Positions 57,882 to 60,800 of a stretch of DNA of 64,000 nt are shown here, piece after piece. The first letter of the stretch is position 1. Each line of letters opens with the position of its first letter. The notes beneath the pieces were generated by a model, which was not told the origin of the DNA, did not search any database, and saw nothing but the letters and a program-made list of their open reading frames with translations. The position numbers were made by a program, and so were the translations under genes. The stretch comes from Alphaproteobacteria bacterium (lineage in GTDB: Bacteria > Planctomycetota > Phycisphaerae > UBA1845). The stretch lies in contig JANQQE010000015.1 of the NCBI GenBank assembly GCA_028285105.1, positions 85,881 to 149,880 on the forward strand. Reading direction: 5' to 3'.

Positions 57882-60800
57882 CTACTTAAGGATCGTCACA
57901 TGACCGCGGTGTTCGTGCCTCTTATCGCCGTTTCCCGTTAAAGAACCCCCACTCGAATCTCCTCCCACGGTCAATCCGTATTTTAAGACCGTGACATGAC
58001 CGTGCCCGTGACCGGTACCAGCGGTCAATCCATATTTTAGTACAGTGACATGACCGTGCCCGTGACCGGCACCACCTGTCAATCCATATTTTAATACCGT
58101 GACATGCCCATGGCCGTGACCACCACCAGCCGACAATCCGTATTTTAAGACCGTGACGTGTCCGCTGCCGCCTCCTGCGGCGATGCCGCCGTTGGTGTTG
58201 TTGGAACGAGAGGAGTTGTAGTCGCCGCCGGATGATGCTCCCCCGCCCGAACCACCTCCGACTCCTCCACCATTGGCAATACCACCGTTCGTATTGTTCG
58301 ATCGAGACGAATTGTAGTCGCCGCCGGTCGTACTATCCGCGTTCTTCAGCACCGTGACGTGCCCACGCCAGTCAACACCCTTCGCGGCAGGGGGCAACTC
58401 GCTTGGACACGAGTCAACCGACGAAGCGCACCTTCCATCCGGGCATCGATACGGCGTTTCCATTGGGCACCCCGGTCCACCGCCCGCAGCATTGACTTTC
58501 TTTGACAAGTCTGCACCGGCTTTGAACTTGACGACATTTTTTGCGGCGATCTTGATTTCCTTACCCGTCTGCGGATTGCGACCAGTTCGTGCGGCGCGTT
58601 TGGAAATCGAGAACGATCCGAAACCGACCAAACTGATCTTGTCGCCCTTCTTGAGACTGCCGGCGTCCTTGGCAATGGCGTCAATGAGTTCACCCTTGTT
58701 CATCAGGCCGAATGGATCCGACTGAGTCCACGGGTTGTTGCCACCGTAGGTGTACGCATTTCCAATATTCAAATCGTCAGCCCATTCACCCAGTGGGTCG
58801 CGCGAGATGAAACGGCCGGCAATGGGTTCAAGGTATCGGTGGCGATTGTAGTACATTCCAGTCGCGTCATCGTAGCGCCGACCATTGAACAGATACGGAT
58901 TTTCTACGAGCGAGAGTGGAATGGCAGCACCAGCCGCATCGAAGAATGACGGTTGTCCATAGTCCTGATACTCATAACGTTCAACGAGAAGCCCATTTGA
59001 ATCGGTCAAGGCCATCACGTTACCCAAGTCGTCGCAGTGGTAGTAGAAATCGCTCGAACCGTGAACCATCTGCACAACTTCATCTACATTTTCGCCGTAA
59101 ACGTATGTCTTGACGGTTCCGAAATTGCTCGATTCTTCAATGACATGGTCTTCGTCGTAGTAATATTCCGTCTGGGTTGAGAGGACCGGTGAACTCTCGT
59201 CCTTGCGGATTCTTCGATCGAGCGGGTCGTATGCGTATTTCGAGAAAATGCCCGTTGTCTGATCGTCGTGAATTACCAAGCGATCCTTGTAGTCATAGAC
59301 CATTTGAATCGGCGGGCCGCCCGACGCGCGTTGTGTTAGATTGCCGTTTTCGTCATAGGCGCGACCGTCGCACCCTGTACTGGTGTATTGGTTCATCTGG
59401 AAGTCCGCTGGCGGGCTTGCCGGATCCATGGTGTACACGCCCGGGCAATTGTCGTTAACAACCTGATTGCGGTTACCGACACTGTCGAGTTGGTACTGGG
59501 TATCGCGAACCAGCGCTGGAACCGAAACGTCTGTCTCCACCGTGCGGGTCAACCGGTATATAGAGTCGTATTCGTATACGTGTTCAAGCTGGGTGGCTGG
59601 TGCGTTTCGAGTTTTCTTGTTGTACTGCGGGTCCCACAGCAAATCGCGAACATCGATAATGCTGCCCGAACCGGGATGTTCGTGAACGATGGTCGCAGGA
59701 AGTTTCACGCCAAAGTCACCCGGACGATTGGGCACACCGCTGATGCCGTTGTAGAAAATACTCGTCGTCGTGCCATTCGAAAGCGCGCGGAGTTGCATGC
59801 GATCCGGACCCACGTATGAGAAATCTGCAATGGGACCGGATGTGTCTGAGATTTCACTGATGCGGTCGAGTTCGTCGTACAAGTAGCTCACCGTACGGCC
59901 ACTCGGATACACGCATGAGGTGTTGTTCCTCAATCCATCGTACGTCGAAGAGATCACCACACCGTTTTGCGTTTCGGAAACCACATTGGAAAGCGAATCG
60001 TATTCCACCGAAACCTGCGAATCGTCATCCTGAGCGAATACCATGCGATTCAAACCATCGTAGGAGTACTGTTCGAAGGTCGTGTCCGTCGAGATACCCG
60101 GACCGACGGTGATGACTTTATCGGTAAGCCGATCCTCAAGATCATAGACGTAGTCAATCTGCGTTCCGTTGGCATCGGTGTGGAGAATCTTGTTGTCGCG
60201 AACATCGTAGTGATAGGACTCGCTGGTTCCGTCGGCGTAACCGGTCAGGGTCAGACGGTCGAGCGCATCGTAAGCGTAGGTCGTTGTGTTTCCGTTGCCG
60301 TCCTGCCGAGAAATCAATCGCGAAGAATCGTCCCAATCCTGAATGCCGACGATCGCACCGATGACTACCCCACCCCCCGTTCCTGTATTCGTCAACAAAC
60401 GGGTCGTCGAAGTCATACGATTCATGCCGTCGTAATCGTATAGGGTCGTATTGCCAAGCGCATCGACCTCTTCTCGCAACAAATCGCGACTGTCGAATTG
60501 ATGAAACTTCGTGTTGCCGAAATTGTCCCCCTTGATGGTCAACCGATTCAAACCGTCGTAGTCGTAGGTCGTGGTAAACTGCTCATCGGGCAGTCCAAGA
60601 TCCGATTTTTCGTTGGTCTCTTCAGAGACGATGTTGGAGTTTGAGTCGTACGTGAAGCGAATCGTATTACCCTTCGCATCGGTGCAGACGGAACGCCGAT
60701 TTGCAGAGTCGTAGATGCAGGTCGCGTTGTGGCTGTTGTCGTCGACAACCTGAATAATTTGCGAGGTATCGGAGTAGAAATACTCGGTTGTCGATTCGCC

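Follow-up and report, generated by a model that had tools for sequence, protein, structure and literature searches.

The window examined here is a 64,000-nucleotide stretch (contig JANQQE010000015.1, positions 85,881 to 149,880 of the forward strand, assembly GCA_028285105.1) from a bacterium that GTDB places in the Phycisphaerae, and all positions below are counted from its first letter. It contains a gene for an RHS/YD-repeat protein whose C-terminal cargo opens with a 71-residue piece resembling the nucleoid protein HU, with helix 2 missing (Table 1). Pfam PF05593 matches RHS repeats in seven stretches of the 1,889-residue protein (E 3.3e-51), and the N-terminal plug domain DUF6531 is present. 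The RHS core model PF03527 matches weakly, at 20.6 bits against a cut-off of 27.9, and the core carries two DPxGx motifs, DPLGE and DPFGL, 22 residues apart. By these defining features of its sequence we assign the protein to the RHS/YD-shell family. In the available excerpt of PMC8636562, Photorhabdus laumondii Rhs1 has 17 residues between its two motifs, the catalytic aspartate lies in the second motif, DPLGL, and the toxin begins five residues later; by homology to Rhs1, the cut in our protein is predicted between L1616 and M1617. Its N-terminus, judged by eye rather than with a predictor, shows a signal-like hydrophobic stretch followed by a dockerin-like DxNxDGxID.

The cargo released by such a cut would comprise 273 residues (amino acids (aa) 1617-1889), which run from the 71-residue HU-like piece through a glycine linker and a cysteine-rich module to a repeat tail. 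The tail closes with ...HRGHVTILK, so that the last GHVT[VI]LK unit is the C-terminus of the protein.

Table 1. Features of the RHS gene and its cargo (positions in the window; ORF, open reading frame).
Feature	Positions	Strand	Basis or remark
RHS/YD-repeat protein gene, 1889 aa plus stop	57882..63551	(-)	ORF list, Pfam
DUF6531 (PF20148), aa 132-204, N-terminal plug region of RHS proteins	62940..63158	(-)	Pfam, E 1.8e-15
First DPxGx motif of the RHS core, DPLGE, aa 1585-1589	58785..58799	(-)	motif logic from PMC8636562 (excerpt)
Second DPxGx motif, DPFGL, aa 1612-1616; predicted self-cleavage directly after L1616	58704..58718	(-)	homology
HU helix 1 segment, aa 1617-1631; deletion junction at 58658/58659	58659..58703	(-)	alignments
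HU beta1-beta2 segment, aa 1632-1649; intact in the window and G331, altered in L030, degenerate in G141	58605..58658	(-)	codon alignment
HU arm (DNA-binding) and helix 3, aa 1650-1687; 38 aa under the strongest constraint in the gene	58491..58604	(-)	codon alignment
Glycine linker plus cysteine-rich module, aa 1688-1725	58377..58490	(-)	similar cysteine modules repeated in P0155 and P0156
Repeat tail, aa 1726-1889: two repeat units, then GHVT[VI]LK six times in Gly/His-rich linkers	57885..58376	(-)	sequence
54-bp tandem DNA repeat, 3.7 copies, 83% matches, encoding the last block of the tail	57968..58169		repeat search

The HU-like piece maps exactly to 58491-58703 on the minus strand and begins at M1617, directly after DPFGL. 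It matches HU positions 1-15 and 35-90, and positions 16-34, the 19 residues of helix 2, are gone. Against HU-beta in the PDB (2o97_B), phmmer placed query residues 1-15 on 1-15 and residues 4-71 on 22-90; BLASTP against a natural 90-residue HU (P0035) opened one 19-residue gap with 64/71 residues identical, and BLASTP against the genome's own IHF-like protein opened a single 19-residue gap at the same place. The same 19-column gap appeared when the piece was aligned by MAFFT with 49 natural HUs (alignment A1). An alternative local alignment that puts GELIDAI on the end of helix 2 was weaker than the helix 1 reading, which we prefer because relatives with a full HU (P0010) read helix 1 there, running to ...-LKKGD. 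Pfam Bac_DNA_binding (PF00216) aligns aa 1631-1687 with profile positions 34-90 of 90 (71.6 bits, cut-off 22.4, E 6.6e-20), and the tip of the beta-arm, R-x-G-R-N-P-x-T-G, is present as RTGRNPQTG, which is invariant in alignment A1. The complete fold of about 90 residues, with its helix 1-helix 2 body, is not there, and on the NCBIfam HU-beta equivalog model the piece scores 74.3 bits against a cut-off of 157. We thus place the piece in the HU superfamily by its sequence, yet not among complete HU folds. A sequence-only reading of the window had proposed an in-frame loss of residues 16-34, which the phmmer, BLASTP and MAFFT gaps bear out; the elements that it listed as kept (helix 1, GFGxF, arm and helix 3) are all present in the alignments, and the methionine that it set exactly at the autocleavage site is M1617, the site itself being predicted by homology.

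The deletion is shared beyond this genome. We denote the window's genome G000, the sources of its orthologues G331, G141 and L030, and relatives from protein searches by P-numbers. The same junction occurs in G331, G141, L030, P0003 and P0006, and P0002, P0003, P0005 and P0006 are ordered as in the window, with helix 1, no helix 2, beta1-beta2, arm and helix 3. The locus is syntenic in G331 and G141, flanked upstream by a radical S-adenosylmethionine (radical-SAM) gene and downstream by a convergent gene for a membrane protein of ~640 residues. Across a sample of 401 Phycisphaerae genomes, the RHS-linked form was found only in the window's genus, in 3/3 genomes (G000, G331 and G141); the other 14 matching genomes gave only short frames of 114-351 aa at 32-48% identity, which we read as ordinary HU genes. 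Searching the GTDB species representatives with the back-translated junction, DPxG[L/F]-MNKxEL, returned four loci, three of which are Phycisphaerae RHS genes; the fourth, L029, proved a chance match in a gene that has neither RHS repeats nor an HU segment. A contig from a second study (run X2, for which the evidence consists of contigs and not raw reads) spans 58572-58937 across the deletion junction with 11 differences and no gap. In a second X2 contig, 178 other letters take the place of the 271 bases between 58492 and 58220, and that closely related strain therefore keeps the HU piece but has a different tail.

To compare constraint along the gene, the four orthologues (G000, G331, G141 and L030) were aligned by codon and counted by the Nei-Gojobori method in six pairs. 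With synonymous sites near saturation between orthologues, the proportion of synonymous differences (pS) was 0.66-0.78 in the shell, 0.50-0.86 in the 38 codons of arm and helix 3, 0.69-1.0 in the 15 codons of helix 1 and 0.36-1.0 in the 16-18 codons of the beta1-beta2 core. The corresponding proportion of non-synonymous differences (pN) was 0.086-0.186 in the shell, 0.012-0.058 in arm and helix 3, and 0.06-0.18 in helix 1, while in beta1-beta2 it was 0.0 for G000-G331 and 0.26-0.48 for the other five pairs. In 6/6 pairs, pN of arm and helix 3 lay 3-14-fold below that of the shell. Between G000 and G331, arm and helix 3 differ by 21 synonymous changes and one non-synonymous change, and beta1-beta2 by nine synonymous changes and none that is non-synonymous. 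Where the window reads LVGFGSFSI in beta1-beta2, G141 reads LSMVETASI, and the segment is degenerate in P0004 too; the reading frame is open in all orthologues. Constraint is thus strongest on arm and helix 3, intermediate on helix 1 and lost on beta1-beta2 in some orthologues. The piece is under strong, segmental constraint at the protein level that leaves unprotected the part most needed by the HU fold. The deletion is old and common to the orthologues, and the piece has been kept by purifying selection; the GC content at third codon positions is similar in the piece (0.63) and the shell (0.60) and thus gives no hint of a recent capture. Both of the outcomes that the sequence-only reading had named as fatal to its proposal, a deletion private to this assembly and a want of purifying selection, are countered by these data, the former by the orthologues and the latter by the low pN of arm and helix 3 in every pair.

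The closest natural counterparts of the piece lie outside the producer's own phylum. The only other HU/IHF genes of the genome, L001 and L003, share 29/63 and 23/60 aligned positions with it (~38-46%). By comparison, the piece is 82-92% identical over aligned columns to 49 natural 90-residue HUs, and one natural HU, P0034, is identical to it over 55 consecutive residues (piece residues 17-71). We took as small homologues the best 120 matches among 5.8 billion proteins; all were 90-113 aa long, with no homologue of ~71 aa among them, and the 38 residues of arm and helix 3 recurred unchanged in three of the 120. Every organism-named match in this set (10/10) was Crocinitomix, Crocinitomicaceae, Lishizhenia or 'Bacteroidetes' (Flavobacteriales, Bacteroidota), which agrees with a likeness to Bacteroidota HU that had earlier been noted from recall. 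A second HU type, ending KKVAKFKAGKALADTVK, was found in P0010 and in proteins source-named Kiritimatiellae/Kiritimatiellia, and its named matches were likewise Flavobacteriales/Bacteroidota (13/13). Judged by the taxonomy of best matches, the piece is a Flavobacteriales-type HU and not the producer's own. We regard a tree of the HU modules as uninformative, as too little signal is to be expected from 56-90 aa at ~90% identity.

A search with the cargo region yielded 30 other long proteins, and these, together with the window's own, were scanned for five segments of the natural HU P0035 at an ungapped identity of at least 55%. No match fell inside the YD-repeat shells except real insertions. 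The helix-2-less order was seen in five of the 31 proteins, and helix 1, helix 2, beta1-beta2 and arm stood in order in three (P0009, P0010 and P0016). Seven proteins (P0004, P0007, P0018-20, P0024 and P0025) had helix 1 and arm without helix 2 or beta1-beta2, several of them repeating helix 1 two or three times, and two (P0008 and P0026) had beta1-beta2, arm and helix 3 without helix 1. Arm and helix 3 alone were found in three (P0022, P0028 and P0029), helix 1 alone in P0021, helix 3 alone in P0027, and the arm alone in the RHS protein P0030, far upstream at aa 862 of 2104 between DNDCDG-type repeats. Five proteins showed other mixed combinations (P0011, P0012, P0014, P0015 and P0017) and three (P0013, P0023 and P0031) no HU segment. 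In P0014 and P0026, more than 100 aa separate arm and helix 3, and the methionine of MNK is retained in relatives even at internal copies. In relatives the HU segments thus behave as separable units. Of the three readings that had been offered for the piece before these searches, a concatenation of only the most conserved HU segments fits the relatives best, with segments occurring separately; the part about conservation does not strictly hold, as the deletion also removes the well conserved LSKADAKRAL. The loss of normal dimerisation and the dominant-negative poison, proposed at the same time, are hypothetical.

The RHS proteins P0018-P0020, P0024 and P0025 carry an inserted helix 1 word on either side of the core motif RYFDPxTGR, so that HU words are not confined to the cargo and can occupy the RHS core region too. 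Of these proteins, P0018 and P0020 are source-named Kiritimatiellae/Kiritimatiellia.

Other words accompany the HU segments. Among 40 proteins examined, DYNSSRSN occurred in 20 and GHVTVLK-type words in 14 and 9. Pieces of EF-Tu are found as well: the 3293-residue P0009 contains positions 42-123 of 188 of the EF-Tu GTPase domain (E 3.6e-19) and EF-Tu domain 3 (E 1.7e-22), alongside a VgrG-type OB domain (E 2.8e-11) and a weak CIS_tube end (E 0.003), and the 1228-residue P0011 has four HU matches and a 30-residue fragment of EF-Tu domain 3 (E 1.3e-7). Three further matches lie below the family cut-offs and are hints only, namely gp19 tube in P0011 (E 0.017), gp19 positions 39-60 of 134 in the P0029 cargo (E 0.0095) and cold-shock domain positions 2-15 of 66 in the P0022 cargo (E 0.2). 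P0009 and P0011 are made largely of the short words VDSFFDITY, TEILSMDLSGS, FGDPDFD, GHVTILK and MNKAELIDAM, and also show an HExxH word of eCIS_core type and a weak stretch like a kinase catalytic loop (E 0.2). Elsewhere in the window's genome (contig C32, locus L005, 2..4087 (+)), an open frame of more than 1350 aa, rich in Cys, Pro and Thr and built of xCPxxxT units, has three VDSFFD[IV]TY words in its end domain, and this word may have its native home in Phycisphaerae secreted proteins.

The word [A/T][Q/T]DYNSSRSN[K/N], often followed by a short I-A-type stretch, stands in tandem in several kinds of secreted proteins (P0152, P0154 and P0157-P0160) and also in the window's repeat tail. Some of these proteins have an outer-membrane-like N-terminal part, Bacteroidota-like by eye; one ends in the HU arm tip and another also carries LSKADAKRA. 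We take D-Y-N-S-S to fit the bacterial N-glycosylation sequon D/E-x-N-x-S/T. The tail matched none of the Pfam families at E up to 10 and gave no usable match in the ESM Atlas, and phmmer with a 202-residue tail query against 1.84 billion representatives returned only nine matches at E up to 0.001 and none at 1e-10; the matches were DYNSSRSN-repeat proteins with no parent family. Parent proteins of GHVTVLK and DYNSSRSN were thus not found by phmmer, ESM Atlas or Pfam.

AlphaFold models of the cargo were of low confidence. From a single sequence, the 273-residue cargo reached a mean predicted local distance difference test score (pLDDT) of 41, with the HU part below 50 and only the glycine linker and cysteine-rich stretch at about 70. 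With alignment A1, the 71 residues alone were modelled at pLDDT 59 and a predicted template modelling score (pTM) of 0.30, as a helix at residues 3-13 and five strands, which would be HU-like elements. Predicting a complex of a natural 90-residue HU (alignment A2) with the 71-residue piece (A1) gave a score of 0.26 against a mark of 0.32, which is no evidence either way.

Features expected of a classical Rhs toxin system were sought in the protein and around it. Only HU/IHF models match the cargo in Pfam and NCBIfam, with no toxin fold among them. No immunity gene stands directly downstream in the same orientation, and none would fit there, as 40 bp lie between the stop at 57882 and the point where a convergent gene ends. 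Pfam detects no PAAR domain in the RHS protein, and VipB and Phage_sheath_1 had no match in the genome, which is 97.8% complete (other delivery routes were not searched). The protein therefore appears to lack three features of classical Rhs polymorphic toxin systems, namely toxin fold, immunity gene and delivery link. The convergent gene (55931-57841 (+)), syntenic in G331 and G141, encodes a 636-residue polytopic membrane protein for which neither Pfam nor NCBIfam offers a family and the PDB no convincing match; its first loop has a DD pair, presumably as in GT-C glycosyltransferases, and a link between this protein and the D-x-N-x-S word is conceivable. The upstream radical-SAM gene was considered as a modifier of the cysteine-rich cargo and dropped, its product being a TIGR03960-family enzyme, of a family that we take to be widespread. 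Two genes from the RHS gene, at 51581-55039 (+), lie a gene for an ECF-type (extracytoplasmic function) sigma factor and then one for a 924-residue Ser/Thr kinase with TPR repeats. Four other RHS genes are present in G000 (C3:1063-7731(-), C9:5944-10854(+), C10:649761-655925(+) and C29:30658-35301(+)), whose C-terminal domains after DPxG[L/K/N] differ from one another, look ordinary and unrelated, and lack these words; the end stretch of the one on C9 looks Hint/intein-like by eye. No RNA run was among the sequencing runs listed as matching.

Known systems resemble parts of this arrangement. With the Rhs effectors associated with type VI secretion systems (T6SS), as Rhs1/Tre23 is presented in the excerpt of PMC8636562, the protein shares a YD shell, a DUF6531 plug, a two-DPxGx core and a cargo directly after the second motif. 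It differs from them in having no PAAR/VgrG link, no T6SS sheath gene found in the genome, a signal-plus-dockerin-like N-terminus (by eye), a cargo without enzyme fold and no downstream immunity gene, and its syntenic locus is inherited vertically within the genus rather than being a swapped tip. TcB-TcC cocoons and teneurins, in the same excerpt, also have a YD shell carrying a C-terminal piece, whereas the cargo here is a string of fragments of bacterial housekeeping proteins. Flavobacteriales HU (DNABII; P0034 and P0035) and E. coli HU-beta have the same RNPQTG arm, GFGSF and helix 3; here, in contrast, the 19 residues of helix 2 are gone and the remainder is fused behind an RHS core in a Phycisphaerae genome. 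In the HU-HIG clade, an HU module has been proposed to take part in biological conflicts and is expanded in Bacteroidetes, but the clade's own architectures, in the available part of that survey (Burroughs et al. 2017, PMC5499826), consist of complete HU domains joined to winged helix-turn-helix (wHTH), immunoglobulin (Ig) or glycine-rich parts. On the HU-HIG model PF18291 the piece scores 14.5 bits against a cut-off of 26.2, outside the clade. Synthetic tandem aggregating peptides, as described in the excerpt of PMC5830399, likewise use a short target-copied segment to disable the target and have a tandem layout with charged flanks and linkers; they are man-made, and aggregation or inhibition is only a proposal here.

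The words 'RHS' and 'toxin' do not occur in the available part of the HU superfamily survey (PMC5499826). Full-text literature searches, which did not extend to paper supplements, found neither Rhs with 'HU domain' nor 'polymorphic toxin' with HU terms; of the strings searched for, only the HU arm string occurs, and tail word strings including NSSRSNK were not found. No published mention of a helix-2-less HU as an RHS cargo was found.

We tentatively favour, as possible rather than probable, a reading in which the piece is a selected mimic of Bacteroidota HU segments that acts as an interfering decoy and not as an autonomous HU. The 71-residue piece would be the first cargo module, and self-cleavage between DPFGL and M would free an authentic HU N-terminus. 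With helix 2 gone, an HU dimer could not assemble its helical body. Released in a cell with a Bacteroidota-type HU, the piece would compete with the resident HU for DNA through its arm, or else for the partner subunit by way of helix 1, the beta-sheet and helix 3. An identity of only ~38-46% over aligned positions between the piece and the producer's own HU/IHF proteins would spare the producer the need for an immunity gene.

Several observations weigh against such a decoy. The best-matching DNA sequencing run, from which the window probably derives, carries the label coral metagenome; the target might therefore be a eukaryote, and against a eukaryote an HU decoy would be hard to understand. 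Interference with HU does not readily account for words made up of helix 1 alone or helix 3 alone, nor for those not derived from HU. The beta1-beta2 segment, kept between G000 and G331 and identical to natural HU, would also fit a still-folding HU-like unit in the window's genome. Binding of the decoy to HU or DNA is something that we infer, and because the relatives in the surveys of 31 and 40 proteins were retrieved with a query built from the words in question, the co-occurrence counts are not independent.

One alternative is an autonomous DNA-binding module, in which a helix-2-less HU pairs through its beta-sheet, two arms clamp DNA, and the His/Cys-rich, possibly metal-binding cargo is tethered to the nucleoid or to extracellular DNA. 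Such a module would fit the concentration of constraint on arm and helix 3, the identity of residues 17-71 to natural HU, the HU secondary-structure elements that AlphaFold reproduces with an alignment, and the display of isolated arm hairpins in other large proteins (P0014 and P0030). It would need beta1-beta2 for the sheet, however, and this segment is degenerate in G141 and P0004 and altered in L030; the models in question are of low confidence, and DNA binding of this kind is out of reach for words with helix 1 alone or helix 3 alone. We consider a tethering role unlikely on balance.

Colicins have disordered translocation regions, and by analogy the segments might be linear recognition words, that is, short epitopes in a disordered glycine-rich chain whose reader is neither HU nor DNA but a modifying enzyme, a host receptor in the coral holobiont, or the machinery with which a target cell takes up or translocates proteins. 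The words do recur in unrelated scaffolds and phyla (RHS cargo, the 3293-residue protein with a VgrG-type OB domain, outer-membrane-like proteins and FG-GAP proteins), the linkers are glycine-rich, the tail model is of low confidence, D-Y-N-S-S would fit a glycosylation sequon, and the probable source run bears its coral label. No reader of the words was found here, though, and near identity to real HU over 55 residues exceeds what a short epitope needs, which leaves this explanation doubtful to us, if coherent.

Less probable still is that the words are aggregation seeds, with tandem beta-prone words, charged or His flanks and glycine linkers nucleating the co-aggregation of proteins that share the segment. 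The sixfold GHVTVLK (and sixfold FVFYDIIL in P0016), with its H/R/K flanks and glycine linkers, resembles the synthetic R-APR-RR plus linker design in the excerpt of PMC5830399, and an RHS shell would keep such cargo isolated; the most constrained part of the HU piece, however, is the polar arm and not the hydrophobic beta1-beta2 strand, and the phmmer, ESM Atlas and Pfam searches found no parent proteins of GHVTVLK and DYNSSRSN. We think it very improbable that the piece is a decaying, functionless vestige of a cargo that once held a complete HU: P0010, P0016 and P0017 do carry complete HU cargoes and beta1-beta2 has eroded in G141 and P0004, but the frame is open in all orthologues, pN of arm and helix 3 is depressed in every pair, and their 38 codons hold a single non-synonymous difference between G000 and G331. 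A chimeric contig or mis-assembled deletion is scarcely credible, for although the tail is repetitive and the G141 assembly breaks there, the junction is present in three other genomes at a syntenic locus and the ungapped X2 contig of a different study refutes an artefact at the contig level.

Beyond the decoy reading of the HU piece itself, the relatives suggest a wider and more speculative proposal, which we consider unlikely. In it, RHS cargo, a giant protein with a VgrG-type OB domain and surface proteins would carry strings of words copied from very conserved proteins of a target lineage, and these words would form a cocktail of sequence-specific interfering peptides, acting as dominant-negative fragments or co-aggregation seeds, and would make up a non-enzymatic class of effectors in several phyla. 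Candidate sources of such words would be HU helix 1, helix 2, arm and helix 3 and pieces of EF-Tu, and possibly the cold-shock RNP1 region and strands of tail-tube or Hcp proteins. Inhibitory protein fragments provide a precedent in principle, as a short segment copied from a target can disable that target in a sequence-specific manner. We know of no natural effector of the tandem-aggregating or inhibitory-fragment type.

To our knowledge, the RHS cargoes described so far act as enzymes or form pores, and they are accompanied by immunity proteins. The cargo here is a near-exact copy of another phylum's nucleoid protein minus one helix, long held constant. If the decoy reading is true, it would represent natural killing or manipulation by protein-fragment mimicry, a principle found so far only in synthetic biology, and would explain how a toxin can do without an immunity gene. 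Were the word-cocktail proposal true, target range would be written by mimicry, and the producer would be immune because its own proteins differ. Even if the decoy reading fails, the family is a natural experiment that could tell which parts of HU work without the HU fold, and it brings to light an undescribed vocabulary of words common to secreted proteins of several phyla.

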